A stretch of 62,429 nt of DNA, filler included, from Hausera hauseri (Eukaryota), in assembly GCA_046269625.1 (NCBI GenBank). It is 12 parts of 12 records of this genome, joined end to end, with 100 filler letters (N's around TTAATTAATTAA, not from the genome) between each part and the next. Parts side by side here need not be neighbours in the genome. Positions count along the whole stretch, not along the records: positions 34,176 to 39,212 come from JBJURY010354598.1; 11 more parts are not named here. One strand, given 5' to 3'. This document shows, one piece after another, positions 12,064 through 55,589 of the stretch. A program made the position numbers and the translations under genes. The stretch's first letter is position 1. The number at the start of each line of letters is the position of its first letter. Under the pieces are notes generated by a model that did not search any database, had not been told where the DNA came from, and saw only the letters and a list, made by a program, of their open reading frames with translations.

Positions 12064-12199
12064 TGTTGGTGTTTTCAAAAAAAAAACTGCAGCTGTAAAT
12101 GGCGATGAAGGTGGACCTGATGGTGGAATGAGAGATGTTTCTTGCGAATTTATATAAAGGAAAGTAAAGGATTGGTATGCTGTTGTTGGCGGAGCGAAT

Positions 12200-12603
12200 A
12201 CAGTTTCTATTACTGTGGAATTTCCGAATGAACATTGCACAGCGACTTTAAGGAGAATTGTGGAAGCGTAATTGGATATCTCACAACAACTGGTATGAAC
12301 TAAACGATTATACAAACATAGAACAGGTCCAAAACCGCTTTTACGATCCTGCAAACAGGCTTCAAGAACAGCTGCTAAATTATATTTATCAATTTTACTC
12401 CCCTCCTCCAAATGTTTATTGAGTACAAGGAAATATTCCTTTATTAAGCCGTCTCTGACCAAAGCTAACAACAGTGAATTCGTTGCAGCCAATTCTTTAC
12501 GTATGTTTTTAAAAGGAACACTGTATGTAACGGTGGATGGTGAAATTCCAATTTCTTTTGCACGGTAGTAAATTCTAAATGCTGCTTCACTATGTCCAAC
12601 CAG
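12200..12603 (-). pseudogene. PPR-repeat fragment, PTCD1-like
   Basis: GHSEAAFRIYYRAKEIGISPSTVTYS is a PPR motif. ACLQDRKSGFGPVLCLY...ILLKVAVQCSFG resembles PTCD1 CIQDKKTGFRYALQVW...LLLVAARDCGLG (recalled). Confidence 0.65.
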
Positions 12604-26898: not shown

Positions 26899-26999
26899 NN
26901 NNNNNNNNNNNNNNNNNNNNNNNNNNNNNNNNNNNNNNNNNNTTAATTAATTAANNNNNNNNNNNNNNNNNNNNNNNNNNNNNNNNNNNNNNNNNNNNT

Positions 27000-29900
27000 G
27001 GGTTACACATCAGTTCTGTCTCTTTAAATCCATCTACACAATACTCAACAATGATTAAATTAACGTCTCAAAATCCATCTACACTGAGCATCATGACTGA
27101 GTCATCAAAGGCGACAGTTGTTAGTTCAGACACACCCATTGGTACCGGTTCTTTGAATGCATCGACGCAATCATCAACAAATAGTAAACAAACAACTATA
27201 AATCCATCTACAGTGAACATGATGAGTGAATCATCAAAGACGATAATTCCTAGTTCAGAGACACCAATTAGTACCATCTCTCTGAATCAGTCAACACAAT
27301 CATCAACAAATCCATCTACACTGAGCATGATGACTGAGTCATCAAAGGCGACAATTGCTAGTTCAGACACACCCATTGGTACCGGTTCTTTGAATGCATT
27401 GACGCAATCATCAACAAATAGTAGACTAACATCCATAAATCCGTCTACAGTGAACATGATGACTGAATCATCAAAAGAGACAATTGCTAGTTCTGGGTTA
27501 CACATCAGTTCTGTCTCTTTAAATCCATCTACACAATACTCAACAATGATTAAATTAACGTCTCAAAATCAATCTACACTGAGCATGATGACTGAGTCAT
27601 CAAAGGCGACAGTTGCTAGTTCAGACACACCCATTGGTACCGGCTCTTTGAATCCATCGACACAATCATCTACAATTAGTAAACTGACATCCATAAATCC
27701 ATCTACAGTGTACATGATGAGTGAATCATCAAAGACGATAATTCCTAGTTCAGAGACACCCATTAGTACTATCTCTCTGAATCATTCAACACAATCATCA
27801 ACAAATCCATCTACACTGAGCATGATGAATGAATCATCAAATGCGACATTTGGTAGTTCTGAGGCACCCATTAATACTGTCTACTTGAATCAATCTACAC
27901 AAAAGTCAACAATCAGTAAAGTGATATCCTTGACTCCATCAACATTAAGCAGGACAAATGAGTTATCAAAGACGACAATTGGTAGTTCAGGAACACCCAT
28001 TAGTGCTGTCCCTTTAAATCCGTCTACTCAATATTCGACAGTTAGTAAATTAACGTCCCTAAATCCATCTACAATAAATCCAGCAATTAGTAGTACTGAC
28101 ACACATATTAGTACTGTCTCTTTGAATCAGTCAACGCAATCATCAAATAGTAAACTAACATCTATAAATCCATCTACACCGAACATGATGACTGAAACAT
28201 CAAAGGCGGCAATTGGTAGTTCTGAGACACCCATTGGAAATGTCTCTTTGAATCCATCTACACGGTACTCAACAGTTAGCAAAGTAACATCTCTGAATCC
28301 ATCGAAACTAAGCAGGATGACTGAATTATCAAAAACGACAATTGCTAGTTCACAGACACCCATTGGTACCGGCTCTTTGAATCCATCAACACAATTGTCT
28401 ATAATTAGTAAACTATCATCCATAAATTCATCTTCACTGATCGTGAAGAATGAATCATCAAAGGCAACAACTGGTAGTTCTGAGACACTTATTGGCACTG
28501 TCTCTTTGAATGCATCTACGCAATATTCAACATTTACTAAACTGGCATCCATAAATCCATCTACCCTGAGCAGGATTAGTGAATCATCAAAGGGGATAAT
28601 TGGCAGTTCTGAAAGACTCAGTAATTCTGTCTCTTTGAATCAATCAACGCAGTTTCCTTCGAAATCATACTCAAGATCCTTAATTTTCAGTGGAGACATA
28701 TCCATCCATTCTTCAACAGCTTCGGGTATGATTGGTACGTCGGTCACAATTCTCGATAGTAATTCAAATTCGACGCAAATTGATATGGGTCTTTCGACAG
28801 CCAACAGCTCATTGTCACAATCTCCAATGACTCTGTTAACTGGGGCGACAATCAAAAGTACTACTATATCAACTAATATGACTTTAGGTTCATCAACTCT
28901 GTCTTCTACATCAACACTTCCAAATACCGGTACATCAGAGACTATCAGAAATTCTTCGTTGTCAACTCCATCTGCAGCATCTACAATTCGATCCAGTAGC
29001 GCTTCCTTTCAACATTCTTCCATTACTGGAATGACTGGATTATCGGATACGACTGTCCGTAGTTCGTCAACATCGACAAAGATGGATTCGGGATCCTCAA
29101 CTCCATTTATTGCATCAATAGTTTCAAATAACGACACAGCGGTTCAACATTCTTCATCTACTGAAATGAGTAGATTATCGAATACGATAATCCGTAGTTC
29201 TTCAATATCAACAAATAATATTTTAGGATTTTCAACTCCATCTACTGTATCGATACTTCCAAATAACGGCACATCAGTCCAATACTCTTCTTCTGGAATG
29301 AGTAGATTCCCGTATACAACAATCCGTATTTCTCCATTTTCAAGAAATACTGTTTCTGAATCTTCAATTCCATCTTCTGCATCAACACATCCCAGCAATG
29401 GCACATTAGTCCAACATTCGTCACCTTCTGGATTGACTGGATTATCGGATACGATAATCCGTAGTTCTTCAATATCGACAAATATTGTTTCAGGATCTTC
29501 TACGCTACCAGCCGGCTCGACATTTCAAAATATTGGCACGTCGGTCAAACATTCTTCACCCACTGGAATGAGTGGATTAACGGATACGATTATCCGTAAT
29601 TCTACAATATCAGCAAATATTGCTTCTGAATTGTCATTTCCATCTTCAGCATTGACACTTCACGGCAATGGCACATCAGTCCAATATTCTGCATCTTCTG
29701 GATTAACTGGATTATCGGATACAACTATTCAGAGTTCGTCAACATCAACAACGATAGTTTCGGGGTCTTCAACTTCACTTATTGCATCGACAGTTTCAGA
29801 TAACGGTACGTCGGTCCAATATTCTTCAACAACTGGAATGACTGGATTATCAAATACGATTTTTCACAGTTCTCCTATATCAAAAAATATTGATTCAGGA

Positions 29901-32900
29901 TATACAGCTCTATCTACGGCATCAACACTTGCAAGTAATGTCACATCGGTTCAACATTCTACATCAGCTGTAATGGATGAATTATCCCATACGATTATCC
30001 GTAGTTCTCCAGTATCAATAAATATAATTTCTGAGTCTTCAACTCCATCTGCTGAATCGACACTTCCTAATAACGGTACGTCGGTCCATCATTCTTCACC
30101 TACTGGAATGAGTATACTATCGGATGAAACTATCCGTAGTTCTTCAATATCAACAAGTATTGTTTCAGAATATTCATCTCTTTCGTCTGCGGCGATGCTT
30201 GCAAATAACGGTTCATCGGTCCAGAATTCTCCATCAACTGAATTGATTGGATTATCCTATAAGACTATACGTAGTTCTCCAATATCAACAAAAATGGTTT
30301 CTGGATCGTCAACTCTTTTTACTGCATCGACACTTCCAAATAACAGTACGTCCGTCCAACATTCTTTATCGCTTGGATTAACTGAATTATCAACTCCATC
30401 AGCTAAATCGGCACTCCCAAGTAATAGCACATCGCGCCAATATTCTTCTTTTACCCGAATGACTGAATTATTGGATACGACTATCCGTAGTTCTCAAAAA
30501 TCAACAAATGATGTCTCATTTTCATCGACGCTTCTAAATAACGGTACATCGGTCCAACATTTTTCATCTAAAACTACTGGATTATCGGATACGCCTATCC
30601 GTAGTCCTCCACTATCAACAAATACGGTTTCAGAATTATCCATTCCATATGAAAAATCGGTTATTTCAAGTTTAGGCACAACAGAACATTTTTCTACACC
30701 TAATGTAGTGACTGGATCATTCAATGTGACTATCAGTCGTTCTCCAATATCCACAGAAATTCTTTCTGAGTACTCAAGTCCATCCTCAAAATCGACCATA
30801 CTGAATAACTTTACATCGGTTGAACACTCTACACCCACCAGAATGACGGGATTATCAGATTCGACCATCCGTGGTTCTTCCATATCAACGGATATAGCTT
30901 TTGGACCTTCATCTCCTGTTGCTCAATCGACTATTTCGAATAACGGTACTTCGGTTCAGTATTCTTCGCCTACTGAAATGACTGGTTCATCAGATACGAA
31001 TATTCGCACTTCTCCACTATCAGTAGATATTACTTCTGGATCTTTATCTCTATATTCTAAATCATCAATTTTACTTAATGGCACATCAGAACGTTTTTCT
31101 ACTCACGCTGGATTATCGGATTCGACTATTCGCAGTTCTGCAATATCAACGGATTTAAATGCTGGATCTTCAACTCTGTTTTCTAAATTGACTGTAACAA
31201 ACAACAATACATCGAAACATCCTTTAAATATAACCTTTATTACGGAACCGGCGAAAATGACGCATAGTAACATTCCGACATCATCAAATAACGCAAATGA
31301 TTCTACGAGTACTTCTTCGACCTTGATGAAATCCACTCTTTTTAGTAACGTTCCATCTAAACATGACTTGGATACAACTTTTGTAACTCAGTCGTCAAAA
31401 TCGACTTATAATAGTACTCTTACATCAGATCATGACATATATCTGTTCACGGAGAAATCTTTATTTAACCAGACGAAGTTGACTACACTGGACTATGTTT
31501 CATCAGTTGAACTTCCTGGCACGGTTCCTGTAACAAATGCGTCTAAAGCCGCTATAAATACTATACAAACGACATCACATACGGGTAATGGTTCTTTAAG
31601 TGCATCTTTATCATTCTCATCGACGACGACAATTTTGAATAACATTACATCCATTGAGTCCTTAAACAGAACTCTTCCCAGCGGTTCGTCAAAATCAGCT
31701 AATCGTAGTCTTCCGACTTCAACCCATACGGCATATGTTACGACGGAATCTTCATCAAAAGAGACTACATGGACTAGGCTGACTAATTTTACATCTGTTT
31801 ATCCTTTAAATGAAACTACTTTTATAGAAACGTCTAAATTGATTAATTATAGTAGATCTACACCGTCCATTATGGGGAATGGTTCTTTAAGTACTTCTGA
31901 ATCGATCTTTGCCAAATCGACAGTACCAAATAACGTAAAGTCAGTTCATTCTTCAATCCTGACACGTGAAAGTGAGTCAACGAAATCAACTAACGATACA
32001 TTAGTAATACCGTCACATATGGATAATATTTCTTTCAGTTCACCTATATCGTATTTTTCAAAATCGTCTATTACGAGTAATATTGCATCAACTGAATCAT
32101 CCGAACCGGCTGACAGTAGTACTCTAACAGAGGCACCAAAGGTGTATGGAACGTCGATATCCGCACCAAACCAGACACCAAGTATTATATTGAGTAGTAT
32201 TGCATCAGTTCATCCTTTAACCAACACCGCTGAAACACGATCTTCCAATATGACTAAAGACAGTACATATACTCCATCAAATCTAGTTAATGTGTCATCT
32301 AGTAGTCCTTTATCGACATTCTTGAAATCGACTATGTTGCATAACGTTACATCCTTTCAGCCATCAACCTTGACACTTACTACTGAATCGTCCAAATTGA
32401 CTGAGCATATTTCTCTGCCTTCGGCACATAATACATATTGGTCCACGATGGAATCCTTCTCCAACCAGACGAAATGGACTACAAATGGTAATACTACATC
32501 ATTACATGCAATGAACACCACCCACGTTACAAAGTCATCTAAAGGAACCAACTTTAGATCTCTCCTACATTCCCATGTGTCTAATAATTCATCACATGCA
32601 TATACATCAATTTTATTCAAATCGAGTATTCTGAGCAACAGTACACCCAGTCAGTCTTCAAATACAATGCTTCCTTTTGGATGGTCAAAACCACTTAACA
32701 GTAGTACTATAACATCATCAAATAAGGGTTTTGGGTCTACGATAGAATTTGTACCTATCCCAACACAACAGACTACTGTTAATAGCGGTACATCAGTTAA
32801 TCCCTCAACATTGTCTCGTGTATTGGAGTTGTCAGTAACAACCAACAATACTACAATAACACCCTCACAAAAGATAAATGGTTCATCAATTTTATCTGCA

Positions 32901-34075
32901 TCAACTATTTGGATTAATATGACATCCATTCATCCGTCATACACTACTCTTCTAACTGGATCGTCAAAGTTGGCTAACCGTAGTACTCTCACTTCCGCAC
33001 AAAGGAGAAATACCACGACAGCATTAATACCGATCGTGACTAAGTGGACTAGTCAGAGTAATGTAGCATCAGATCATTATTTACCTACATTATTTACAAA
33101 ATCGTCGAAGACATTTAATGGTAGCATTTCAATGACATCATATATGGAAAATGGTTCTTCAAGTACTTCTGAATCGTACTTTCCAACGTCTACTGTTCGG
33201 AGTGATATTACCTCAAGTTTCACTTCAAAAACGTCTCTATCAACTGGATTGCCAAAATCAACTAACCATAGTATTCTTACTTCAACGCATAAAGATTATT
33301 TTACTACTCCATTTTCATCAAGCCATACGAACTTGACTATTCCTAGTAACATTACATCATTCTCTTCTCCAAAGACCAGTGCTCAAATACAGTCATCGAA
33401 ACCAGTTACTGAAAGTTCTGTAACACCTTTAATTATGAACAATGATTCTTCGAGTGTTTCCTCGTCATACTCCTCAACTTCCAGCATTTTGAGAAACATT
33501 TCAACGATTCATTCTTTGCAAACAACTCGTCTAACTGGTTCGTCAAACCCGGTTAGACATACTACTTTAACATCAACTCATGTGGGTCATGGTTATACAA
33601 CATCATCTGCTTCAAACGAATCAAAACGGACTATTTTGAGTAACTTTACATCAGGTCATTTCGTTAACACTACGTTTGTAACTCAATCACCGGAATCGAC
33701 AAACGGTATCGTATATACATCTTTTATTGCAGATGGTGGTTCTTTAAGTACATCTGAATCAAATTTACCCAAATCGACTCTCTTGAGTACAGTTGCATCC
33801 AGTGAGCCATCAAACATGACACTTCTAACGAGGTCATCAAAATCGGATATCTATAGCTTCCTGACTTCAGCAAGTAGGGTATTTTCTACGACGACATCTT
33901 CATCAAGACAAACAAAATGGACAATTCCGATTAACGTAACATATGTCCACCATTCCAACACGGCGTATATATCAGAGTCGTCGAAAGTGACACGTGGTAA
34001 TACTTCTACACTTTCATATGTTAGTAATCATATATCTAATACACCTGTATTTAACTTTTCTAAATCGACTCTCTC
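27000..34075 (+). CDS. Very large Ser/Thr-rich mucin-like repetitive protein, open at both contig ends
   Basis: Single uninterrupted frame of ~2358 codons across the whole contig. Diverged ~40-46-aa repeats; no Cys seen in the translation; many NxS/T sequons. Near-identical 495-bp higher-order repeat at 26999/27494. Confidence 0.85.
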
Positions 34076-34727
34076 NNNNNNNNNNNNNNNNNNNNNNNNN
34101 NNNNNNNNNNNNNNNNNNNTTAATTAATTAANNNNNNNNNNNNNNNNNNNNNNNNNNNNNNNNNNNNNNNNNNNNCATTTAAAAGTTGTGCAATTTGCAA
34201 TTGCAACTACACCTACTAGTTCATCAGGATATACACCATTTGAACTAATGTACGGAAGAAAACCACTACTCCCAATGGACATTCAGTTATTACCAGAAAG
34301 GGAAATACCTGAAGTTCAGTCTGATGAAGAAATACATGAAAGCGTTGTAAACAGTTTAGCAAATTGCTGGAAGAAAGCTAAACAAGCTATCAAACAGTAT
34401 AAACAAGATTACCAAGAATATTATAATAAAAAAGCTAAACCGCATACATTCCAACCAGGTGATAAAGTAATGGTACATTACCCAGTAGCAAAACCAGGAA
34501 AATCGTTGAAATTAACACGTACAGGTAAAGGACCCTATTTAGTAGTAAAAGTCACCCCTGAAAACATATTTATTGAAAAGGGCACTGGTAGAAAGACCAG
34601 AATCGAATGTGTATCAGCTCAAAGAGTTACAAAAGGACCAAAGGAACCAAAAGCTAAGGAAGAACCTCGATACTCGTTACGATCATTGAAACAACCAATT
34701 TTAAAACCGGCTTGTAGTTTAGAACAG

Positions 34728-35760
34728 TTATTTCTTATAATCATGATTTTCGGTTTAATATTATCCACCACGGCACAAACCTTAATAACAGACCCTGTAA
34801 TTACAAATCTAGAATTACGAGTGAAAATTTCTTGGCAGAATTCAGTAGATTCAGTAAATGGATTATTCGTAGGAGAATCGAAATATAAAGAAATCACTCA
34901 ATTAATCCTATCACCAGAAATTAATGATGCAATTTGGTTGTCAACCAAACGCTGTTCAATCCCCTTGTTAAACGAAATTTGCCTTATAGATCTCTACTTC
35001 CTAACAACTGAAATGCTACTGAAACCAAAGCAGAAAATCCTGCCTATAGCAAGACAGGTATATGTGGAAAAAATTGGCTCTACCTTTCTCTTCATTCAAG
35101 AAAAAGACCATGAACCTAAGCTGATAGACAAAGTCATGATAAAAAGGCCTACCTTGACTGATGACGTCGATTTGCAAATAACGTATTATTTCCCTAGACT
35201 ATTCAAACATAAGTCTGGCGAAAAAGCCCTGAATTTCCATATTCACATGTCATTATTGCAATTCTTCCAATTAAGACAAACAACTAGAACGACCATAACT
35301 ACTTTACCAACTTCTAGTAATAAACAAATTACTTCTTCCAAAATAGGCAAAATACCTGAAGTAATAATCATCCCCTCGGATTCATACATTGAGTTTAAAA
35401 CTTTGCAACTAGTAAATGAGCCAATATCTATAACCTGTGTAGGCAAATATCATAATATATACGCTATCATAAAAAGTATGAACGAATGACCAGATGTAAT
35501 GACCTCCAACCTGACGAAGAGTACTTGATTGTTTTTACCCAAAACTATGCAAAGACCAGACACCAAACTATTAGAACTCAAACAAGAACTCAAAAATACT
35601 TGATGCATGAGGAATTTCCAGCTTATATACCAATACAGTCAACTATTAATTCCAATATCCAGTCTAGTATGCTAAAAACCTTAGTACCTTCCATAGTAAT
35701 AATATTCCTCCTACTGTCCATATCCACACCTTTTGTAATAATCGAATTAAAAAGATTCTC
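34728..35760 (+). CDS. Pol-fused membrane protein: signal peptide, ectodomain with FN3-like domain, TM
   Basis: LFLIIMIFGLILSTTA|Q signal (34728-34775); ISITC..Y....RCNDLQPDEEYLIVF (FN3 LxPxxxY tyrosine corner); TM LVPSIVIIFLLLSISTPFVII followed by KRFSKKR. Confidence 0.6.
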
Positions 35761-37012
35761 TAAAAAACGAGCCATTTTAAATAAGACCCTATTACTGACA
35801 ACTAATTTAATATGTATAATGAGTTTTGATGTGGAGTGGACGGTTGGCGTCAAAGGGAATAAAAAATTCAACCTAATACATAAGTACAAAAAATTACATA
35901 CAAAACGATCATATAGACTAACATACTTACAAAAAGTAGAAGATTCATACACACATGGCAGCACGTTACATCAAAGACCAATAAAACTCGACTATAGAAA
36001 GTTGAGTCCCACACATATTCAAAAGCTATGTAAAGCTAATCAAACCATTCAGAATTCTTTTCAACAACCACAAAACATGAAAACAGATCATTTTGACCCG
36101 AATTTCTCACCAGAAGACAGCGCCAGTTCAGATGATTCAACTGAGACAGTAATCATCAACCCCAAACGAAAGGTTGTATTACCAGAAAAAGAACTAACCA
36201 CAGTTCTTCAACGTCCAAATCCGCCGCCACACGATACAACGAAGTTTACATTCCACAACCCTTTACAAACCGGACTCTCAAGAGGTATTCTATCTTCAGT
36301 AGTAATTCAGAGAAAGGATCCCACTAAGAATCAATCGCAAAAATTTACCACGGATATCAGACGTAAATCATTTACAATGGATGATTTACCACAAAACAAA
36401 AAATCAAAATTATGTGATTAATTAATCGAAAATTTAGAACAATCGGAGCGAGACAGAATAGATAAAAGGCCATGGAGCGAACTGTATAGTAAATTTGTCA
36501 AAATATACCAACCAGGAAGAAATCTTTTCCCGTCTAAATTCTACGCTAGAATACAAGAATTGGCCGAAACATCTTCAGACATTCTATACCCAGAATGTAG
36601 GTACATCGATAATACGCTGAAAACTACTACAATCAATGAAAGATCGTTCAGAATATTGCGTATTGAAACACCTTCAATGAATGTTAATCTTAATACTATG
36701 CTCCATCTAGACCAGCAATTTGAGAAAGTATTATTGCATGTTGCACAAGGGAAAGTGCAATTCAAAGCGGATGTCGATATGTACGATGAGTTACAATTAC
36801 AAAATTCCTTGTTAACCTCCAAGATGACGATGCGTATAAAGTCCACAGCCTTTCAAACAAAGATATTAATGCGTATATTATCAGCACCACTAATCATGGG
36901 AATAGAAATTTGTCAACCATTGGATACTCAATTAGGTTACCAACCTCCAATATTTTACCAAGTACCAAAAGAACCGAATATTTACAACTATCGGCTAACA
37001 AAAGCCAATAAC

Positions 37013-37470
37013 TTTCGATATTTGGCCGTTTCACTCGCGTATGCACCAAACGGTGATCCAGTTCCTATAGAAGTGATTATAGCGGATCAAGCCAAGTTAA
37101 TCATATACCACGCATTTATTAATCCGAGAAGAAAAGTGTCAAACACTAATGAACACCACCACGGATTATCAATGGCCCTAATTCAGCAAGCCGAGGACGA
37201 AGAGATAGTTCGATCAGAAGTTATCAAGTTTCTATACGGGTATATCGTAATTAGTGCTAACACCAGCACAATACTAAAGATACTCCGTATACCCTCTACT
37301 TTTGTCTATGGTGTAATGGATATATTATCCACGTCAAATACAAAAGCTCGCTTTGCCGAGGCCAAGATTAAGCCCAACTTAACCCAATTACCCAAAATGT
37401 ACAACCTATCATACGAATTTCCTAAAGCAGCTGAACCGATTCTGCAAGCTGTTATCGACATATATAATCA
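37013..37470 (+). CDS. DEDDh (REX4/ISG20/DnaQ-like) exonuclease-fold domain, probably inactive
   Basis: YLAVSLA...EVIIAD...IYHAFINPRRKVSNTNEHHHGLSMALIQQAEDEEIVRSEVIKFLYGYIVISAN...LKILRI follows the DEDDh pattern. ExoI DxE, ExoII D and ExoIII H/D positions appear substituted. Confidence 0.6.
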
Positions 37471-38381
37471 ACTATTAAATAGTTGTACTAACGAAAAATG
37501 GGAATGGGATTGAATTCCCCCGGACAATAATCTAATTAGCGATGAAGGTTTCATGAGGATATACAAGAAGTACCATCCAGATTACCAATATGAAGATCTA
37601 AGAAAGACAGACGTAGCTAATCCAAGCTCGTCCTATGAACACCTAATACAGCAAATGAAAACCAACACACCAGAAATGCTAAAAACAGCAATCACCGATT
37701 CACTGGAACTATCAATATTGCTATACGGAGCAATTCAACTGACTATTAACGTCTACTTTAAACAACAGTCTTTAACAATTATGAATCAATATCAGCAAGT
37801 CCAGCCTAACCCCAGGCTTGGAACTATGATTGGAATGGTTTACAGGCATTCCACACAGAATACCTTACATCTAGTGATGGTTGGGGCCCATCTTGAGACT
37901 ATCAAAAGTCTCAATCACACACCGGTATTGGTACATCAACCAATACCTATGCAGTTGGACCAGATACCCATCCCTAAACCAAGGGGTGCGAAGACTATCA
38001 ATTTGAAAGGAACAAGCCGAGAAAAACTCAAGATGTTACTGTACCGAAAGGATGATCAGTTTTTGTTGGAAAATCTTTATAATATACAGAAGACAATTCA
38101 GAAGGACGAAGAAGTACCTAAAGACTCTTTAACAATTCAATTGTGATTTTGCTTAACTTTCTATCATGATATTTTAGCTTATTTTTCCTTCTTTACTTAA
38201 TGTATGACTTCTACTATTTTTATATGCTTTTGCACTCTGTATTTTTATTGACATTATTACGATTTCACTTTGTCTTTCGCTACATCAAATACATCATCGC
38301 GCTTTGTACGCTGTATATTATTATGCTACAGTTGTCGAATAATTAAATAACGATCTAATTTTGTGACCAAAATTTTTTTAC

Positions 38382-39212
38382 AGGGGGGAGAGATGTTAGG
38401 GTTATGAAGTTAGCACAAATATAAATTTATGAATTTATTAAAAACATTTGTTTAAGAAATTTCTAAAAAATTTAAAGATTAAAATTAAAAAGTTTACTAT
38501 TCTTAAGACGTTAAGTTAAATCTTCAATGAAATTTTTAAATTTAAAGTTTAAAGAAGAAAAATTAAAAATTAATTTAATAAAAAGTCAATAAATTTAATT
38601 AATTAAGTCAATTAAAAGAAAAAACTATACTACGCAAAGTATAGTTTAATAACGAATCGATACTACATAAAATATGTTAAATTTGATAAATTAAAATCAG
38701 TACTACACAAAGTACTGCATGTCCAAAGAAAAACTCATAATAAGATAAAGAACATTACCACGTAAATCACAAAAACTAAAGAACTATTACCCCACGATTT
38801 ACTAAAGTTCAAAAAACACCCACAGTCAATAAAATGGTATAAATACCCAAGTAAAAATTAGAATGACGAACACAAAATCTTAAAGGTTAAATTAACCGAT
38901 TTTAATTGCTAGACCTTGCCGTTAGATTCGGAAACAAGGTTCTTTTCAATATCATTCGACAACTGTAGCAAGTTAGTTTTTGTAATTGCTTGCCGTGATT
39001 CGGATACCAATACAATTTTTTTCAATCCGTGTTTATTTCATTTTGGGAAGAGTCCACGAAGAATTTTTCAGTAAGTATTTCAATAATTTTTTCGTGTTCG
39101 TTAATTTTCTCATCTTCTTCGTAAATAATTTAAATTTTTCCCCTTAATTAAGAGCGACAGCGGCCGAACCACAAGTAGGCCAAGCTATTATACACCAATT
39201 AAATAAAATCAA
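38382..39212 (+). repeat. Polypurine tract and 3' LTR (truncated)
   Basis: AGGGGGGAGAGA (38382-38393) is immediately followed by TGTTAGGG (LTR start 38394). TATAAATA at ~38838; AATAAA at ~39202. Confidence 0.75.
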
Positions 39213-39312: not shown

Positions 39313-41250
39313 TAAATTTTCCAGGTAGGGATGCGATTCTTCATTCCCCTTCTTCTCTCGTCAAACTTCCTCCAGGTATTTTTTAAAAGTGCTGAATTTG
39401 TATTGCCTTCCTTTGTTTGTGTCCCAGTTTTGTTCAGTCAGTCTATAATAAACTTTCCCTTCTGCCAAGTATATATATACGTCACTGTGCTGCCCTAATT
39501 CAAATTTCAATAAATTTTGTAGACTATAGCTTCGTGCATCTTCATTTTTCCTCATCGCATATAATCTCAACACTCGATTCTCTTCGACAATTCCCTATAG
39601 ATGGTTAGGAATTTCATCCACTTTATTGTATTCAATCGCTGTCTAGTTCTGTAGATCCACGTGAATGTGCCTGTATATGGATTTGGAGTTCGGGGTGATT
39701 ATAATCGCATTCTCTTGCAAAAATCCATCGATGTCCGTACAAGAATTGCTGCTGGTCGCCATAATACTCACCAATCTGAAATAAAACAAATAAAGGTTAA
39801 TCCTAAGACAGATCTTTGTTTCATTACAAAACAATTTCACTGTCTGATGATAGAAAAACCTGATATGTAGTTGTCAGGTTATTTTATCATATAAATCACT
39901 TTGGTAAAGCACGATTATCCCTCCATCCTTATTTTTGTGCTGTTTTCTACAATTTTTGGCAAATATATAAAATGACTCAATTGATATTAATAAGACAAAC
40001 GCTGACACTGCGATAGTAGGCATAATAGATGAAGTTGTTAATTCAATTGTTTTCTGTGTTGCCATATATGTAGTAATTGTGTTTTCTATGTCTTGACCCT
40101 TTTGTGAATCTGGGTAATTACTTTCTGCTAAAGTGCTTAAGGTGATTGCCTGATTTTGCTTTCCTGCTGAATTAATTTGTATTATGTATTCTGTCTGAGG
40201 TTTTAATGTGTTACATTCTACTTGTCGTGTATTCTGTATAAGTTTTACTTTTTGTCCGTCATATAAGGTTCGACACTTTATTTCTATATCGTAGTTTAAT
40301 CCTTCCTCAACAAAGAACACTATTCTATACTGATAAACCAAAAATCTGATAGGTATGTTTTTAATTTCTGTTTTAGATATATTGTTCATTGTAACAATTC
40401 GTGCGGTCGACTTTTTAGTCGGGTTTCCATTGAAATTTTCCAAATTCTATTTTCTGGATAGTAAGTTCGTAATTGTATACTTGATTGATTAAGCCGTATC
40501 TCATATAAGTCAAATCTTATTTTGAATTCCTGGTTCACGGGTATTTTACAACACGGATGTTGCACGCCTGCGAGAATGGAACAATATCCTATTTTCGGAG
40601 TTGGTCCTATTGCTGCCTCAAACACGATACTAATTTCCCGACTGACGGTTAGCTCCGTCCGAGTATTTACTTGGATACATTGTCTTTCCTTATTCACAAA
40701 GATTCTCTGGATATTTTCGTTTAGTAGTCTTATGTCCGGGTCAGTGGATCGTAACAATTCGTTAAGTTTTATTTCATGACGCCTATTCCAAGCAGGAATG
40801 ACTAGTTGGAATTGTGGTTTGTTTCATAAATTTTAAATAATTTTGGTAGGTACAGACAATAGGTCAGATTATAAGTATATCCGAAATCTATGTCGCAACA
40901 TTACGTACGCTTTCCAGGCTTAAAATCACAATTCTTTGTTTCTTTTGTTATTACGTCATGTAAGACAATTTGGATCCATACAGAATTTCGGTGTGGTTTC
41001 CGTGTCTTAAATCCAATGCATGTGGAGTTAGGTGAGTAATAGTGGATCGTTATTGCTTGTAATAATCTTATATCTTCTTGTTTTTGATTCCCTTCGACTG
41101 TCGGTTTCCTTTCAGTTTCAATAACCTCCAATCTTGCTCCATTTTTCCGAACTCCGTAATTGTCGTGCCACCCTTTAGCTTGTGTTTTCGGGATATAGGA
41201 GGCAATTAGCGATAACGCTAAAATTATTTAAACATACGATATTGGTCTGT
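39313..41250 (-). pseudogene. Accessory region after integrase: FN3-like ectodomain + TM + further ORF remnants
   Basis: IEIKCRTLY...VECNTLKPQTEYIIQIN, TM IMPTIAVSAFVLLISIESFYIFA then KNCRK. Homologous to 34728-35760 (also QLRTYYP vs LQITYYFP). Confidence 0.6.
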
Positions 41251-41289
41251 TAATTATGGAGGATGTTTTTGTTTTCTTTTTATCTTGAT

Positions 41290-43936
41290 GCGAGCTAGAT
41301 CGCAAATTGTAACGTATTTCTGGTTTTATTTCTGTTTTAGCAACTCTCTGAATAGATACTACCTCTTCTTTGCCATTTTCATTAATGTACACCGTAGTTG
41401 GTGTGGTTAGAATGACTTCATAAGGTCCTCGTCTGTGCGAGTGAGTTTTAATGATGTACCTTTCTTTGCAATTGGATAATGTACGTAATCCCAGTTTCCT
41501 TTTTCTAAATCATGAGGTTTGGCATTTTTATCATATTGTTTCTTAAACTGCTCTTGATACTCAAGAGTAAGCGTTTTCGCTATATCCCAAAATTTCTATA
41601 ATCTTATTCGCAAAACTTCTGCGAAGTTCGGTTCTAAATCGTCTGGATTTGCGTCATACGGAGTCATTCCTAAGTCCGTAGGTAAAATCGCTTCGCGTCC
41701 GTACATCATAAAAAATGGTGTAAATCCTGTGGCGGGATATAGAGTAATATTGATAGCGAATTGTGTTCCTTCTAAAACTTCATCCCAGTTCTTTTGATTC
41801 TTTGCTACTACGGTAGATAGGACTCGTATGACTGTTGCATTCATACGTTCGACCATCCCATTGCACTGAGGGTGATATGCGGTAGTGGTTAGCCGTTCAA
41901 TTTTGAAGATTTTAGAAATTCTGTCAAATAATTTGCTTGTAAAATTTCTTCCTCTATCGGTTAGTATTTGATCGGGCGGTCCGTATTTGCAAATGATTTT
42001 CCTTACTACTGCGTCGGCTAGAGTTTCCGCCTTTTGATCAATTAGTGCGATCAATTCCACAAAGTGTGTTAAATGATCTACGCATGTCAAAATATATTTA
42101 TTATTTTTATGAGTTGCAGGTAAAGGTTTTACTATATCCATAGGCATAGCTTGCATAGGTCTGTCTGGTATGTCGATTGGTTTTAATTCTGCTACATAGT
42201 TTTTCAACTTTTTTGTTTCATTGCACAAACTTCGCAAGCGTCCACTCAATTTTTCACATCAATATAAACGCTTGGTCAGTAGTACTTATTCAATATTCTT
42301 TCTAGTTTTTTCTTTCATGACATATGTCCAACTAAATGTGAATCGTGTTCAGCCATTAATACTTCTGTTCGTAATCCTTTCGGGATAACTACCAGTTTCC
42401 GTCCCTTCCGTTCGTAATATAGAATATTATCCGGGTTCGATGCATAATATTTTTATCCGTGTCGCTGTAAGTGTTTCTTTAGTTGACGCCCTTTTGATAT
42501 CTTATCTTTCTCGTAAAATTTAACTATTTGTTGGATAACTTTATCTTTAGCTTGTTCTGCAGCAATTGTGATTGCTTTATTTAGTGTCAAGGTCCGTTGT
42601 CGCTCGACTAAATCTTCAAGTTGAGCTTTCTTCATGGTTGTAATCGTATTTGTCTTTGTTTTAAGTCTTGATAAGGCGTCTGCGTCTACATGTTTACTTC
42701 CGGGTTTATATTGAAATTCAGTATTGTACCGCGAAATTTCCTCAATCCATCGATTCAGTGTACACGTCAAGTTATTAGCCCGTCCCTTTAGCGTGGTAAA
42801 AGTTTTATGAACGGTTACTATAATAAATTTTTGTTCGTAGACATAGACATTAAAATGTCTCTAGGCTTCTTTTACGGCTAGTGTTTCTAGTTCGGTTACT
42901 GAATAATTTTTATCAGCTTTTTTAAGCGATCGTCCTCCATATGCAATTGGATGTTTTAGTTCTTCGTCTTCTCGTTTTTGAGCCAATTCGTAACCAATTC
43001 CTTCTTTACTTGCGTCTGTTTTAATTATAAATGGTAAATTGAAATCGGCGTATCTAAACACTGGTTCACTTGTTAGAATTTTCTTCATTTCGTCGAATGC
43101 TTTCTGTTCAACATAGGTCCATTTCCATTTGATGCCTTTTTTCAATAGCCTATGTAATGGCGCATTTATTTTCGAATTGTCTGTTACGTAAGTGGCATAA
43201 TATCCGAATAAGCCTAACCAATGCCCTACTTCTTTCTGATTCTGTGGTTCCATACAATCCGATATTTTGTTTCATAAGGATTTGTATGGCTTCGGTCCTC
43301 CTTCTCCGACTATGTGTCCAATATAAAATACAGCGTTTTGTGCCCATTTACATTTCTTGGGATACAGCTTCAATCCTGCCTGTTCTAATCGCATAGGAGT
43401 ATCCTCGATGTCTTTTAGATGTTCGTCCTCTGTTTTTGATGCTATCATTACATTGTCTAAATATGCGAACGCGTGATCTAGTCCCATTAACATCTTATTC
43501 ATCATTCTAGTGAAAATAGCTGGGCCGGTTGTTATACCAAACGGCATGACGTTAAATTCGTAAACTCCATCGTGTGTCTTAAATGCTGTCTTATAACGGT
43601 CATCTTCAATTTCTACTTGCCAGTATCTTGATTGTAAATCCAGCGTGGTAAACCATTTTGCTTCTGATAGACGGTCTAAAACTTCTTTCACTGATGGTAG
43701 TGGAAATGAATCCTTCATCATAAGCATATTTAAGGCTCTAATCTATACAGAATCGGTGTTTAGTGGTATCTTTTTTCTTAACTATGAGTATCGGCGAATA
43801 CCAAGATCGGTAGCTTGGTCGTATTGTCGGCTTTTCACATATGTTCTACTTTGGTTATTTCGGGCTTTAATGAATGCGGTTGTGGATACCATTTATGCAT
43901 CTTTTGCTCTTCCAAGTCTTTTGTACCAATTTATTG
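41290..43936 (-). mobile_element. Decayed Ty3/Gypsy pol (RT-RH-IN), same family as 34176-39212
   Basis: RT (DSFPLP, YKTAFKTHDGVYEFNVMPFG, AYLDN), RH (TDASKEGIG, NYSVTELE, HVDADALSR), IN (LTDRGRNFTS, YHPQCNGMVER). The shared VHYPIAKKGTSLKLT / GPY / RYNLRS motifs match the + strand copy. Confidence 0.93.
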
Positions 43937-48385: not shown

Positions 48386-50868
48386 CACGAACCTAGAGAT
48401 TCGAATCAAAATGGAAAATGAAAAGCGAACACAAATATATAGTTTGAGAAACCGAATTATGTCTCCAAACAACGAAGAAACCAAATACGTAATAAAAGCT
48501 TGTATCATAGAATTTGATGAATATAAGAATGAATTTAGTTGTGCCAGCCGGATTATGAAATTTATAAAAGTTCCAGATGATGAACTAAAGGATGTATATA
48601 AGATGCTAGACAAAGCTATATTGGCTAAGTCAATAATCGCCAATCAATTGTCGGAATGGTCCGAATTAGTAGCGCGACTAAGTAAATTAGTGGAAAACCG
48701 TAGGAAAGAATTTCCAGAGAGCGAACCTTTTACAAAGAAACAGTTAGAAGAAAGCGCATGTAATTTAGATACAATACAAGCAGAAATAGACATCCGAACG
48801 CGATTCAAAGCTTTACGGCGACTCAATTTTATGAAGAAGAAGCAAGAAACGATGATACTGGAAGTGATTTATAAAATGATCGAAGAGACAAACTTTACAG
48901 AAAAGCGAAATATGACTTGTAATTTTTATCCAAGATTAAGAAATATCCGACTAGAAGGAGTCCAACATTTAACAGATAAACCTATCGACGAGACTTTAAT
49001 TCAGGATATCGAAACCCTAAGCATTTGTCCGGGACATACAGCAACTTTAACAGAAACAATAAAATTCTTTCACAAACCACAAGAGTGGATGACGCGATCG
49101 GATCAGAATTTTTATACCGAGTTGACAAAGATAAGAAATGATCAACATCTCAATTTCCAGGAATCTAAATTCATAAAAAAATTGTTGGATGCGATGGACC
49201 CCGACTCAAAGGTCATAAATAAATGTATGAGCGGAGATTAATGATGAGAAGATGAAACATTTAATACCAAGACTACAGCAAGTAGAAGAAACGTGCATCA
49301 GAACAAAACAAGGAGCAACAAGACTAGATGAACTGGCAAAAGAGTTCGAAAGCTATCGGAATAAGTACGCCTTTACGGAATTAGAAATCAGAAATAAGCG
49401 AGAATTTGTACAACAGTGGCAAAGAGATGTAATCATGGAACTAACTGATTATCGCCAAAAGGGATTCATAAATTCTAATGAATTAGGCGAATTACTGAGA
49501 ATGATTCAGTATGCCTATGGAAACGGGATAGGTTTCCGAACTACGCAGATGAAAGAAATACAACCAAGATTGAAAGAAATCCGAGAAAATGTGCAAAGAA
49601 CGAAGACAGCCTTAATAGACTATGGGCTTCCAGATGTTGAGAATGAACCGGAATGGGATGCGTACTTAGATGCAATAACTGCCGAAAAACCCGTGACTCC
49701 AGTACAACTAAATGTGATAGAAATAAGGTCCGCAGAACAGGATATTCAATGTGGAAATGCTCCTGGATTCAGCGCTAGCTGAAAAAGATTTAATTGAACT
49801 AATTAACGTGAACCTTGCTGAAAGTAAGTTAAGACAATTTTCTAGTGAGAATACAATTTATAGCACGGTGCCGAAATTTTTGATAAGGAAATACGCTAAA
49901 ATCTTGAAGGCTAAACCTGAGGTAGCGATAAAAGTGTTGGTACCATCCGAGTGGATGGACGAAAAATAATGTGAACTAACTACATATTCCTATGTGAGGG
50001 ACGTAAAAGAGTGGTTATTAAATAATGGTGGAAGAGATAAGCTAAAGTATAGATTTTACTTTAGAGGTAGAATACTCGACGACTTAGAACAATTAGTAGA
50101 TGTAGGGATTATCCCAGACAAAACAAATAGGATAGTTGCAACAATAGCCAATGAACAAACAAAAGAAGAGGCCACGTGTAAAGCCAAAACAGAGCAATGC
50201 GTAGGACAAATTATGGGAGTCCGACATGCTGCTATGTACTTCGAGTATTTACAGACGGATCAGGACAAGGAACAATACGATATAAATTTAGTACCACTGA
50301 GTGAAACAACAACTAAAGATCCAAGGCCGAAACGTCTGGTTGGTAGGCCTAAAAAGACGCGAGAAGTTGACTATAATGGAGAATTGATTAGAGAATTGAG
50401 ACGGATATCGATTCCAACTGACAGTACAAATAATGAGGAATTAAGCGAGTTAATAAAGAATTTGATACGAATTGTAAATTATTCGAGCCTTCGAGGTGAT
50501 ACACTAGATGATAAAGAAAAGGTAATATTTAATGCAACTAGAATGATGAGAAGTTCACGATTTAAACTGTCAAAAGGTAATTTAACCGACAAATCGGTAA
50601 TCAAAAAGATCATGGTAGAAAACACCACTGACGAATTAAGGAAAGTATTACTATACTTAGCTATCAAAGTAAACCCCAGTCGAGAGAATGAAATGAATAG
50701 AGCTACAAACTTAGCACGAAGAGCGGCGAGAAAGCTGCCCGCGAAGTAACTTGGTCAAAACTATTTGACAAGGAAGAAGACAAACGGACTAGTAATAGTA
50801 ATGAACTCGACGATATGCTACGTAATTTGGTAACAACCGATAATAATAATCGGAAAAATGAATCAAAT
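48386..50868 (+). pseudogene. Disrupted long polyprotein-like ORF of unknown function upstream of a viral glycoprotein
   Basis: Abutting ORFs 48411-49241, 49252-49782, 49751-49969 and 49994-50749, separated only by stops or frameshifts. Charged and helical; no introns evident. Confidence 0.55.
49928..50146 (+). pseudogene. Internal ubiquitin-like domain
   Basis: IKVLVP...VRDVKEWL...KYRFYFRGRILDDLEQLVDVGIIPDKTNRIVATI fits the Ub fold pattern (RLIFxGxxLxDxxxLxDxGI). No terminal GG; one in-frame stop. Confidence 0.7.
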
Positions 50869-52982
50869 TGGCTAATCAGCTTACTCACCTTGATGATACT
50901 AATAAAGCATATAGACGCTGTTACCGTCTACGATTGCGATAAATTCAAACTAGGGCGAAGATATTCGTTAATGGATTTGTAAGTGTGCGAATATTCCAGA
51001 CCGCACAAGTTGGAAACAAGAGAAAAATTACTTCCTGTATTAATAACGAGAATTGATATCGTGAGATGGAATGGAACGTATGCTGAGGCGATCTCGTAGC
51101 ATTTTTCACTGTGGGTTAGTACACGGACATTCCTCCATAATCAAGCCAACAACTCCGCTAATCCAAATGAATTTAGAACGCCAGAATTGCAAGCAAGCCA
51201 AGGAAACTGGAAGAGTACAATGGGACAATATGCAATTAGAAATGCAACTAGGAAAGATAATTAGGGCGTACAAAGTAGTGGTCGGAAGGTTAGATATGCA
51301 TAGCGGATATTGTTACGGAGCAGAATACGACACCGGAAAGGGATTGCAAACAAACGTGGTAGTCGTGGATTTCTACGAATCAGAGATGCGATCACAAAAA
51401 GTAATGTTCCATAGTGTCACCAAGTTACACACCGAGAATCAAAAATGTCATTTACAAGACGGAACCTGTGCTTTTAGAAGTTCCGTTATAATATGGGAAC
51501 CTTCCTCTGGAAGAAGTTGTAATTTTATTAAAATTAAGGAACTGAAGTTTAATGAAACTACCGGAAAGCGATACGTGGATAAATCGGATACCAACTCAAG
51601 GACACGCGAAGATGTATCAGAAAATCCTACGCCAACTATATTAATCTCCGATTAGCATGGACTAAAATTTATTAAGAAAGAAATGATTCCCCGTTAGGAC
51701 ATAGTGATGTTCGCTACTAACTATAAGGCGTTCTTCATAGCCGAAACCGAGATAAATGCGAAAACCTACAGGTTGGAGACACAGGATATCCGAATTGAGG
51801 ACTACTTGAAGAACAGAGATGATTACTTTTACTATAAAGGACAAGTCGGAATAACGGAATTATATCACAAAATGATCGAGAATGACTGTAAATTAGATAC
51901 CGAGATCATGAGGACGCAATTAACCCTTATATACTCCAACTTATAATTGGCTTCTCCAATAATTCCTATGAGAGAGGGAATTTTCTGTCAGGTCACGGGC
52001 GAGGTACTGCTAACCTATGAATGCGAAAAGAGAGATATACACATCAACGTGGAAAAAAAACGTTGTATTCAGGAACTCTCTCTCATCTATCAGAATATTC
52101 CCAGGTTAGCTACACCGTTGACGAGAGTGTTAATAGATAATGCAACCCAACCAACTATCCTTAAGGATCACAAAGCAAGCTTAGAAGAGCCTATGTTTAG
52201 ACGTAGTGAAACAGACTGGGTTAGTTTGCCAAATGGAGGTATTACTGCCGCTCCAAATAAATTAACAGGAACAAACCTTGCGAAAGGAATTACGGACGAT
52301 AAATTTCAAGATATCTCATCGAAAGGCATATATGGGCCTGAGGAAATTGAGGCTTTCAGACAATTCCTTGCTTTTCCGCGACAGCGAACACACGAATTAA
52401 ATCGAGCTATGGCCTCTGTAGTAGACAATACCCGATATCAGGCTAAATGGGAATCCTTACTTGGCGTAAACCATTATCAGCGAGTAACAACAGAAATACT
52501 CTACAAATTTTGGGGAAGATTTTTGATTTTCGGACAAGCCGCATCCGGATTCTTAGAGATATATTTTCTGATACAAATGATTAAAGCAGTCATCCAACCA
52601 GTAATAAATGGGTATGAAATATTTACATTGACCGGATTTTCATGTAAAATACTGACCGCAATAATAATACCCTTTGGGAAGTTTTTAAAAACATACGAAG
52701 AAAACAGATGGAAATCGGTCGCAGAACGCCATGTTGGTTATAATAATCGTAAACGAAAAGGAAGGCAAAAATATACGAAGAAATAATTCAGATAATGACG
52801 ATCCTAAGGGAGGAGAAGTACTTTCAGTAATAAACAGATACAAGACGTACTCTGCCATTAAAGCACCATTGCCTATGTTATCTCCTACTGCTCCAGTCTA
52901 CGAAGACTGTGAAAAACAATCCATGAGTTTATACCAGACGGAAATCTATAAAAGGAAGATTAATGTAGAAGGCCCGTATTAA
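50869..52982 (+). pseudogene. Chuvirus-type glycoprotein, disrupted
   Basis: Signal WLISLLTLMILIKHIDA|VTVYDC, YSLMDL.VC, FHCGLVHGHSS, GYCYGAEY, CHLQDGTC, IIWEP, GIYGPEEIEAFRQFLAFP, FWGRFLIFGQAASG...IKAVIQPVINGY. These correspond to recalled chuviral G motifs. Confidence 0.8.
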
Positions 52983-53424
52983 GGCACCAAATGCTACGGG
53001 ATCCTACGGAAAATGTGTTACCGACAGTCCGTTGATGATCCCAGGATGTTGTATTCTCCGAGTGAATCTCGAAATATAGAGACTAAATCGCCTGTTTGGG
53101 AAAGCCCAAGGTTAAGAACCTTTCGGAACATGGAACCGCACACTAACAATCGAGAACCATTAACCAGTACTCAGGAAGCAGAAGATTTAAACCTCGAAAA
53201 CAATGAATTATACCCAAACGGTGAGTTAAGGCAACTGGCCGAGCACATAGTATCCTCCCCAGAAATCCGAATCAACGAACATAAGATATCAGCGGCAAAA
53301 CGCTCAAAGGATGCATCAAACTGNNNNNNNNNNNNNNNNNNNNNNNNNNNNNNNNNNNNNNNNNNNNTTAATTAATTAANNNNNNNNNNNNNNNNNNNNN
53401 NNNNNNNNNNNNNNNNNNNNNNNA

Positions 53425-53913: not shown

Positions 53914-55141
53914 ATGGCATCTGCAAAATCTGAATATATTTGACAAAGCGGCGTCACAAGTTGTTATTGACAATGCGGCATTTGAAGAAATCTACCCGTT
54001 GATTTGGTTTCAACGGACGATAACACTGACATTTAATTTAACATTATAACATCGGACAATGAATACCTGAATTTGAACGATATGCTACTCTATGTAAAAG
54101 TCATTGTTAAAAATGACGCATCAACGGTTCTCGCTGCAACAGACACTGTCCCACTGGCCAATTACCTTTTCCTCACATTGTTCCAGGAAGCTTCACTGAC
54201 TGAACAGCGTCAAAATCAAAGGCAACACCTGTCTATACAGTATCAAAGCACTCACTGAATCGGCTCTGAATTACAACACAAGCAAGAAAAGGACTCATTT
54301 GACGAAAACCATTGGATATGACGCCACTCCGGCAAACCGTCAGGCGTGGGTGGCAGAATCAAAGGCACTGACAATGTGTGGACCCTTGCACTTTGACTTT
54401 TTCGATTAGCCAAAATATATACTGCCCGGTGTTAAAGCCATGATTTGCTTCAAACGCAGCGGCAATGTATTTTGTTTGAAAACCACCGTTGGAAATCTCA
54501 AACCCCTACTGAAAATTACCGAGGCACGATTATACGTATGTCGAGTAAAGATAGAATTATCTGTGCTCATGGGACATCGATTGGGCTTGGAAACGCAAAA
54601 TGCTTGTTACCCGATACAACGCACAGAACTCGTCTTTTACATCATACCCAAAGGTTCGACAACGTTTTACAAAAATGCACTATTTGGCGACATGCGATTG
54701 CCGAAATTTGTGCTCGTTACATTTCAAACGACTGTTCCACAATCGGGCAGTTATACGATCGATTCGGAAACGTTTACCCGTAGCAATGTGAATTACATCA
54801 GTTTGGATAAGAATACGGATTTCGTTGAGACATACAAGCAAGATTTCGAGACCGGCGATTATGTTTGCACATATATGCAATCTATTGTGCGCAACATGGG
54901 TTTGCTCAACAAAAACATCAACAATAACATATCGATGGATCTGTTCAAGTCCACCTATCCATTCTTCACTTTTGTCCTGGCGCCGGATTATGACGTTGAA
55001 CAGACTCAACTACCTCAGCAGGGAAACCTACGACTGGAGGTTCACTTTGCTAAAGCGTTGGAAAAACCTACCGTGATGTACATTTACGGTGTATTTGATG
55101 CCTAGGTTGAAATAACGAAAAACGGAACTGTCATTGTATAA
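53914..55141 (+). pseudogene. Polinton/Maverick major capsid protein (double jelly-roll)
   Basis: LNIFDKAASQVVIDNAAFEEIYPL, ITEARLYVCRVK, YPIQRTE, LPKFVLVTF, FTFVLAPD, GNLRLEVHFAKAL, IYGVFDA*VEI. Several stops and frameshifts. Confidence 0.88.
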
Positions 55142-55235
55142 ATAAAATCCCATGTATCTCACCTTTTATCCTTCGTCGTATTATGAAGTAATTTAATACT
55201 ACTATTACTATTATACTTAATTCACATTTAGCTCC

Positions 55236-55589
55236 ATTGAGCTCAGTCACTACGGAAAACTGCTCTTGGGCGTGAAATTTCGTGGCGTGTTTCCAGTGGA
55301 CCGTGTGCCGCGCGATTTACGACAAACCGACGGCTTTATTGTCAATACACACACTTCACCGTTGCCAGGCGAACATTGGATTACTGTGTACGTCCACCAT
55401 CCGACCAACGTCGTCAAAGTATTCGATCCGCTCAGATTTTACTATTCGTCATCGTTAGTTTCTCAAATTGAACAGAAATCACCATCATCGTACCGTGTTG
55501 AATATAATCGAGTTCATTATCACCATCCAATGACTATACTGTGTGGAAATTACTGTTTATTGTGGCTTACTTTACAATCACTTTTGTGA
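55236..55589 (+). CDS. Polinton adenain-like cysteine protease (likely decayed)
   Basis: FRGVFPVD, IVNTHTSPLPGEHW (His), VFDP (Asp), LCGNYCL (Cys). The oxyanion Gln appears replaced and no clear start codon is present. Confidence 0.88.
   Translation: MELSHYGKLLLGVKFRGVFPVDRVPRDLRQTDGFIVNTHTSPLPGEHWITVYVHHPTNVVKVFDPLRFYYSSSLVSQIEQKSPSSYRVEYNRVHYHHPMTILCGNYCLLWLTLQSLL

Follow-up and report, generated by a model that had tools for sequence, protein, structure and literature searches.

A decayed giant Gypsy element in Hausera hauseri whose relatives encode a gB-type fusogen and a second membrane protein of predicted FN3 fold, its candidate attachment partner

Layout and decay of the element

The window analysed here is a 62,429-nucleotide stretch of Hausera hauseri DNA (assembly GCA_046269625.1) made of unlinked contigs that are chained by artificial N44-linker-N44 spacers; adjacency across a spacer carries no meaning. 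Contig A (34176-39212, JBJURY010354598.1) is the decayed 3' portion of a giant Gypsy retroelement resembling the planarian Burro elements, and its integrase is continued by a membrane protein that is the subject of this report. Two further contigs, contig B (39313-43936) and the gB contig (48386-53323), are referred to below. Contig A is truncated at its 5' end within the integrase, with GPY at 34530 and RYSLRS at 34668. The integrase, a hydrophobic segment (34719-34775) and the ectodomain share one open frame up to 35489, and a second frame (35456-38146) carries CNDLQPDEEYLI at 35495, a transmembrane (TM) segment at ~35681-35749 and a tail interrupted by in-frame stops at 36419-36421 and 37511-37513. 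The open stretches measure 437, 321, 363 and 210 codons (chance P 4e-14 to 4e-7 given base composition). These reading frames confirm the first-pass annotation, which had the integrase running in frame into a signal segment, ectodomain, TM segment and tail, broken by one frame change and two stops up to 38146. The same annotation placed a polypurine tract and then a long terminal repeat (LTR) behind the tail. The tract stands, since a purine run at 38382-38393 followed by TGTTA is the sole such site within the window; the LTR is placed from this site by itself, and the window holds no second LTR copy. The features of contig A are as follows, with L001 and the other relatives described further below.

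34176..34685, plus strand: C-terminal part of the integrase with GPY and RYxLR (tblastn with the L001 polyprotein, E 2e-24; Pfam MLVIN_C, E 0.1)
34719..34775, plus strand: internal signal-peptide-like segment in frame with the integrase (hydropathy-based, KD19 2.1; equivalent position in relatives)
34776..35680, plus strand: ectodomain of ~300 amino acids (aa) with one frame change within (synonymous excess among copies)
35361..35602, plus strand: FN3-like domain split by the frame change, zone 35456-35489 (relatives' repeat profile)
35681..35749, plus strand: TM helix with basic residues behind it (KD19 2.6)
35750..36505, plus strand: cytoplasmic tail or linker of ~250 codons holding the stop at 36419-36421 (no Pfam match)
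36536..36919, plus strand: beta-rich N-terminal domain of an accessory module (profile of relatives, E 1e-17)
37001..37468, plus strand: predicted DEDDh exonuclease fold of the ISG20/REXO-like type, its catalytic residues lost (Foldseek, VIA, profile)
37514..38146, plus strand: C-terminal 210 aa behind the stop at 37511-37513 (open frame)
38382..38393, plus strand: polypurine tract (purine run)
38394..39212, plus strand: probable 3' LTR starting TGTTA and running to the contig end (position behind the polypurine tract)

The family of contig A is present as many variant contigs in three sequencing runs. The stop at 36419-36421 is missing in all seven covering contigs (runs X1 and X2), and that at 37511-37513 is missing in 438/446 of the depth in X1 and 20.1/20.1 in X2. 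At the frame-change site, three contigs carry an indel difference, amounting to a minority of local depth. Selection among copies, a matter raised in the first-pass annotation, was assessed from the 40 best-supported difference rows per comparison, with the two stop rows excluded. The listed differences were mostly synonymous: 6/9 in the integrase (2.2 expected), 13/19 in the signal segment and ectodomain (5.7 expected), 11/18 in 36250-36418 (5.8 expected), 17/21 in 36422-36600 (5.9 expected) and 7/11 further downstream (3.3 expected). As almost no other covering copy has either stop and synonymous differences are in excess, the breaks in contig A are decay, and the cargo, including the ectodomain, is under purifying selection among copies.

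Relatives with two membrane proteins and an exchangeable ectodomain

Homologues of the accessory module (DEDDh relatives) led to locus L001, a single open reading frame (ORF), 3012 aa or longer (P0009, 3700 aa), that carries both membrane proteins. Its N-terminal part consists, in order, of zinc knuckles, a ubiquitin-like domain, a signal segment, a gB-type fusogen (PF24664, E 3e-85) and a TM segment; then come two protease-like domains, reverse transcriptase (RT), RNase H, integrase, a signal segment, an ectodomain, a TM segment and a 91-aa tail. On the 3' side of the polyprotein lie a separate 222-aa ORF (9207-9875) with no assigned kind and an intact exonuclease ORF. The single gag-env-pol ORF with a ubiquitin-like domain is seen in L001/P0009 and in P0010, that is, in relatives and not in the window copy.

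A search with the last 776 aa of L001 among proteins of 1656-5271 aa returned 37 matches, the top 18 of which (P0009-P0026) form the extended group. PF24664 was found in 14 of these 18 and lay upstream of RT in all 11 that were mapped, while the four relatives without it start downstream of the expected gB place. A post-integrase signal segment and TM segment both exceeded the hydropathy threshold in 15/18; with P0011, whose TM segment is above threshold and whose signal segment was recognized by eye, 16/18 have the layout. P0026 combines a signal segment with an immunoglobulin (Ig) domain (PF13927, E 4e-8), its TM segment being unclear. Thus the extension is kept both by the variant contigs and by 16/18 related polyproteins, and its absence from other copies, a possible refutation of the first-pass annotation, was not what we observed. 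That annotation had also put the protein in the env position. Because relatives that have this extension also encode a gB-type fusogen on the upstream side of Pol, the post-integrase protein is a second membrane protein and not a substitute for env, and the env-position claim is not supported.

Among the other 19 matches, P0027 alone has signal and TM segments. It belongs to a different Gypsy element, in which the integrase is followed in frame by a chromodomain, a signal segment, a long ectodomain (precomputed PF00974 match) and a TM segment, and is a Pol-fused glycoprotein of another kind. A search of viral contigs gave no relatives.

Several motifs recur around the extension. Behind GPY, the motif [RKHS][YF]xLR is present in 17/18 extended polyproteins and 0/19 other matches; the window copy lies at 34665-34682. 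We take its letters to resemble those of the foamy-virus arginine-anchor motif, and by this analogy it is a possible nucleosome tether. A chromatin-binding arginine anchor, with a role for R540, is described for foamy-virus Gag in the consulted part of PMC6042332. Ankyrin repeats follow the integrase in P0020 and P0021. The tails of the relatives bear YxxPhi and Pro-Pro motifs, with Pro-Pro in the first 45 aa of 9/17 and PPxY in two (counts made with no control). In 9/18 relatives, a further D[TS]G motif of protease-like kind is found past RT, after the integrase; in P0012, P0013, P0015-P0021 and P0023, extra retropepsin-like domains were noted after the integrase and beside the gB anchor, with at most three D[TS]G motifs each.

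An Atlas search with the contig A ectodomain gave no usable match, and its N-terminal 190 aa are without a family. In the relatives, a Cys-containing repeat occurs 19 times in 12 of the 14 ectodomains examined. A profile built from those 19 repeats, with window sequences excluded, matched two halves in contig A that flank the frame change, at 10.8 bits (positions 10-41) and 15.3 bits (45-87), each scoring above 1000/1000 shuffles, and matched contig B at 22.1 bits. The model of the L001 repeat is all-beta (predicted local distance difference test, pLDDT, 81). Its top Foldseek rows are FN3 domains (E 1e-3 to 1e-2), and in a wide VIA search the top FN3 rows scored Z 9.7-8.1, the best being Z 9.7 (root-mean-square deviation, rmsd, 4.5; 95 aligned) and Z 9.4 (rmsd 2.7; 88 aligned). 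IFNAR2, IL-22R1, gp130 and contactin are among the structural matches. The Pfam fn3 family had no match in window pieces or relatives, the best match being FN3_DSCAM (E 0.047) in contig B. The L001 model predicts a seven-stranded beta-sandwich of FN3 topology for the relative's repeat, to which the window domain is assigned by profile. The FN3 fold proposed in the first-pass annotation is therefore supported, and so, within the scope of these searches, is its view of a non-fusogen surface protein: fusogen profiles did not match the post-integrase ectodomain in window pieces or relatives, and a viral structure library returned nothing at E<=0.001 for the L001 repeat, the only repeat folded.

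Ectodomain length in the relatives ranges from 105 to 396 aa, with 1 to 14 N-glycosylation sequons. Percent identities of RT, gB and ectodomain were 94/94/57 in one sister pair and 88/94/40 in another, with medians of 70/38.5/10 over 78 pairs; from family to family, the ectodomain changes far more quickly than gB. The slot can also be filled differently, by the Ig domain in P0026 and by a small Cys-rich domain in P0023 and P0024. A complex prediction of the gB and FN3 ectodomains of L001, run without alignments, scored 0.00 and counts neither for nor against a pairing of the two.

This pattern bears on what the second membrane protein may do. If it stayed at the host cell surface, it could act as a decoy, as a signalling modulator mimicking FN3 or Ig proteins of the cytokine-receptor or adhesion type, or as a block to superinfection. 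Host receptors are built of FN3 and Ig domains and receptor structures are among the matches; an arms race would explain the rapid divergence and the swapping of domains just as well, the tails carry YxxPhi and Pro-Pro motifs, and Burro elements bear many host-manipulating domains (PMC6431247, in the section on Burro). One-to-one synthesis within a structural polyprotein, however, fits a particle component, and L001 has its other accessory genes outside the polyprotein, as ORFs of their own. We consider a cell-surface role unlikely, but it is the alternative to which we give most weight. A second alternative is that the cassette serves mainly to anchor Pol, or the cytosolic tail with its pseudo-nuclease, at the budding membrane, the ectodomain being secondary. 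The signal and TM segments are indeed constant while the ectodomain varies in length, and the D[TS]G motif after the integrase in half of the relatives looks as if placed to cut Pol off its anchor. A tether, on the other hand, needs no folded, disulfide-bearing, repeated ectodomain under purifying selection, and we regard a mere anchor as quite improbable.

The accessory module and other contigs of the window

The long tail described in the first-pass annotation is present, but it is not featureless: it holds a DEDDh pseudo-exonuclease module. The piece 36422-37513 has weak matches to Pfam Arena_ncap_C (E 9e-4) and PolC exonuclease (E 0.32), and RNase_T accounts for 29 of its 30 Atlas matches. 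Five relatives of the module were found among 1.84 billion representatives; one homology search with the 363-aa piece gave no match, and a search with alignment A1 gave P0004 only. The module model (pLDDT 67) matches human ISG20 (Foldseek E 1.1e-7; VIA Z 16.2, rmsd 2.8, 152 aligned), and the module profile matches ISG20L2 (E 2.5e-18), predicting a DnaQ-like fold of the ISG20/REXO-like DEDDh type. None of the five catalytic residues (D-E-D-H-D) is retained in the window, the last two columns being less sure. All five are present in P0002 and P0006; in P0003, P0004 and P0005, the last of which is shorter, they are missing from the columns covered. The beta-rich N-terminal domain is possibly a double-stranded beta-helix (cupin/2OG-like), to judge from whole-model Foldseek rows for T7H, vaccinia C16-N and ABH2 (E 7e-5 to 3e-4). 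The C-terminal 210 aa have no Pfam match and no significant match to P0004 or to the N-domain profile. The P0004 relative of the module has a C-terminal RING finger.

By analogy with Maelstrom and EXD1, inactive DEDD derivatives that are said to bind RNA ends (PMC5408684, in the part consulted), this is also the most likely role of the catalytically dead nuclease. Whether, in the window's family, the nuclease and the TM protein form a genuine fusion is a close call that leans slightly towards fusion; an ATG at 35819 could begin a separate ORF.

Contig B and the gB contig contain the following.

39313..43936, minus strand: second, more decayed family with RT, RNase H and integrase, signal segment, FN3-like repeat (40368-40126), TM segment, short tail with a stop, and the start of the accessory module (39699-39379) (profile, tblastn)
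48386..53323, plus strand: 5' portion of an element of this build, with a ubiquitin-like domain and a broken gB-type fusogen (PF24664, E 7e-10 and 1.5e-29; tblastn with L001, E 6e-66), separate from contig A

The first-pass annotation proposed a phylogenetic placement of the RT at 41290-43936. This RT sits on contig B and belongs to a different family, the integrase ends of contigs A and B being 39% identical. The full Ty3/Gypsy Pol order (protease, RT, RNase H, integrase, with GPY/F) is seen in contig B and L001, and contig A shows GPY and the integrase end. In an RT tree of all 37 rows, contig B was unplaced on a long branch. Without 17 of the rows (13 outgroup rows, mostly long-branched, and 4 near-duplicates), it sided with 14 extended elements against 6 others (97/93), again on a long branch. 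In a fast integrase tree, contigs A and B adjoin P0026.

These contigs weigh on two further explanations. The window's family might lack a fusogen altogether, leaving the FN3 protein as its sole surface protein in the env position. Contig A itself shows no gB, the window families branch deep, and no read or contig joins 34176 to the gB contig. Against this, gB is present in 14/14 sufficiently complete relatives, and the window holds a decayed ubiquitin-like and gB contig of like build. We consider this alternative very unlikely; that gB stood upstream in the window's family is, in our judgement, very likely. The other explanation is that a host receptor exon was captured by chance, or that the assembly is chimeric, and that the protein has no role; it might be suggested by a copy broken at three places in a fragmented data set. 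It is largely refuted, and in our view has next to no chance of being right, given that the family is multi-copy in three runs with a synonymous excess and that the same layout recurs in the contig B family and in 16 relatives.

Signals around the accessory ORFs were also noted. At 39879-39868 (minus strand) of contig B, the TM ORF ends in TGA followed by CAA CTA, presumably a leaky context for read-through, and the accessory module continues in the same frame. At 39781-39766 (minus strand), an acceptor-like tract, four bases and a donor-like GTGAGT lie just 5' of the accessory module, and P0005 is alike; in L001 an acceptor at 9998 immediately precedes the exonuclease ATG. In a strict splice-acceptor scan, L001 gave one acceptor, ahead of the ATG of its exonuclease; contigs A and B gave none and a control stretch gave one, a weak result. 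The acceptor-like and donor-like signals suggest that accessory mRNAs may be spliced.

The remaining contigs hold other features. The stretch 26999-34075 is an open frame of more than 2300 codons, Ser/Thr-rich and mucin-like, with 129- and 135-base repeats. A subtilase host gene (prohormone convertase-like, with long exons) lies at 3454-5179, and a decayed furry-like gene piece (MOR2-PAG1_N) and a BTB-BACK-UCH mosaic lie in neighbouring contigs at 11281-14550. At 20986-21705 (minus strand), beside a 3-kb AAC-type repeat, an ORF with a P-loop and DD motif recalls a small superfamily 3 helicase and has no Pfam match. An adenovirus-type protease-like piece (Pfam E 0.024) and capsid-like pieces occupy 54410-55589; we take these to resemble a Polinton/Maverick capsid gene.

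Known systems and a possible two-component entry mechanism

Division of attachment and fusion between proteins is familiar from herpesviruses (gD/gH-gL and gB) and paramyxoviruses (HN and F). The labour proposed here would be divided in the same way, but both proteins come from one retroelement polyprotein, and the FN3 protein has no sequence or fold relation that we found to the attachment proteins of those viruses. The arenavirus NP exonuclease shares the DEDDh fold with the tail module (the Arena_ncap_C match).

Among retroelements, the closest description is that of the planarian Burro/GYPSM1 elements, which exceed 30 kb with LTRs and combine a huge polyprotein, a Gag with CCHC knuckles, a ubiquitin/SUMO-like domain, a mononegavirus-type env lying between gag and pol in the same frame, and accessory ORFs (PMC6431247). 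As in Burro, ankyrin repeats and RING fingers occur in some relatives here. The section on Burro in that paper describes no post-integrase membrane protein, FN3 domain or exonuclease, and its polyproteins are longer (4873-5140 aa, compared with 2600-4060 aa here). The BIR, MATH, BCL2-like and dUTPase-like domains of Burro had no Pfam match in 15 relatives, the Burro study having used HHpred. The likeness concerns the published domain description. Errantiviruses with GAG-ENV-POL order and a gB-type (herpes simplex virus-like) env occur in Platyhelminthes, Bryozoa and Nematoda (Chary and Hayashi, PMC13524379) and share the Ty3/gypsy Pol and the placement of env upstream of pol. They are without gD/gH/gL, and the discussion of that paper states their entry route as unknown; its main text contains neither "fibronectin" nor "exonuclease". 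Bdelloid Juno and Vesta, LTR elements whose ORF3 encodes either a DEDD exonuclease, as a 3' accessory gene, or small TM proteins, offer a parallel for the tail module (PMC5408684). Their nucleases are RNase D-like DEDDy enzymes with intact catalytic residues, encoded as separate ORF3s without a TM segment, whereas the module here has an ISG20/REXO-like DEDDh fold preceded by an additional domain, is dead in 4/6 sequences (one cut short) and stands alongside two membrane proteins. In the literature searched, where coverage of Burro was incomplete, neither a second post-integrase membrane protein nor an ISG20-like module is described.

We propose that contig A derives from a giant Gypsy element whose intact relatives encode, in one polyprotein, a gB fusogen and a type I membrane protein of predicted FN3 fold, the latter likely being a particle-borne attachment partner of gB. 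We are highly confident of the architecture as described. Given that architecture and gB upstream, a role in particle attachment is reasonably probable, and the proposal as a whole is finely balanced, tipping barely in its favour. In the proposed mechanism, every signal and TM segment would mark a crossing of the endoplasmic reticulum membrane by the polyprotein chain; signal peptidase would free both ectodomains, and the element's proteases would free the enzymes. The first-pass annotation had put forward release by signal peptidase too, with cell attachment, cell-to-cell transfer or immune decoy as functions, and these likewise stand as inferences. The two surface proteins would be produced in equal number to Gag and Pol and enter particles together; the rapidly diverging ectodomain would bind a host surface molecule, and gB would carry out fusion. 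In the window's family, the frame appears to continue into the beta-rich domain and the dead ISG20-like fold, which would likely serve as an RNA-binding accessory factor.

Several observations count against this proposal. The gB linkage of the contig A copy is one we infer, the contig being cut inside the integrase, and the families of the window lie far from L001 (integrase ~35%) and on long branches. P0013 has gB and neither post-integrase segment, indicating that the layout is not universal or that the record is cut. The contig A ectodomain has zero N-glycosylation sequons, and its FN3 assignment traces to a fold modelled on a relative's repeat with modest Foldseek E-values. The gB-like G proteins of chuviruses and related viruses are not known to rely on a separate attachment protein. 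As regards fusion to the nuclease, the protein ends 21-119 aa past the TM segment in all 16 relatives that have one, and both L001 and contig B encode the exonuclease module in an ORF of its own; the window fusion may be an accident of one copy.

In its broadest form, the proposal describes a lineage with a two-component entry machine, in which a conserved gB and an exchangeable receptor-binding protein (FN3, Ig or Cys-rich) are produced from one Gag-Env-Pol-Env2 polyprotein that threads the membrane twice, together with an ISG20-like nuclease or pseudo-nuclease directed against host RNA defence and membrane-anchored in one family. We advance this form tentatively, as somewhat less probable than not. 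If true, it would represent a retroelement in which attachment and fusion are separated, with an unusual polyprotein topology, and a new family of accessory nucleases with live and dead members. The conserved second membrane protein would be a concrete candidate for the entry of gB elements, testable in planarians, where such giant elements abound and are expressed.

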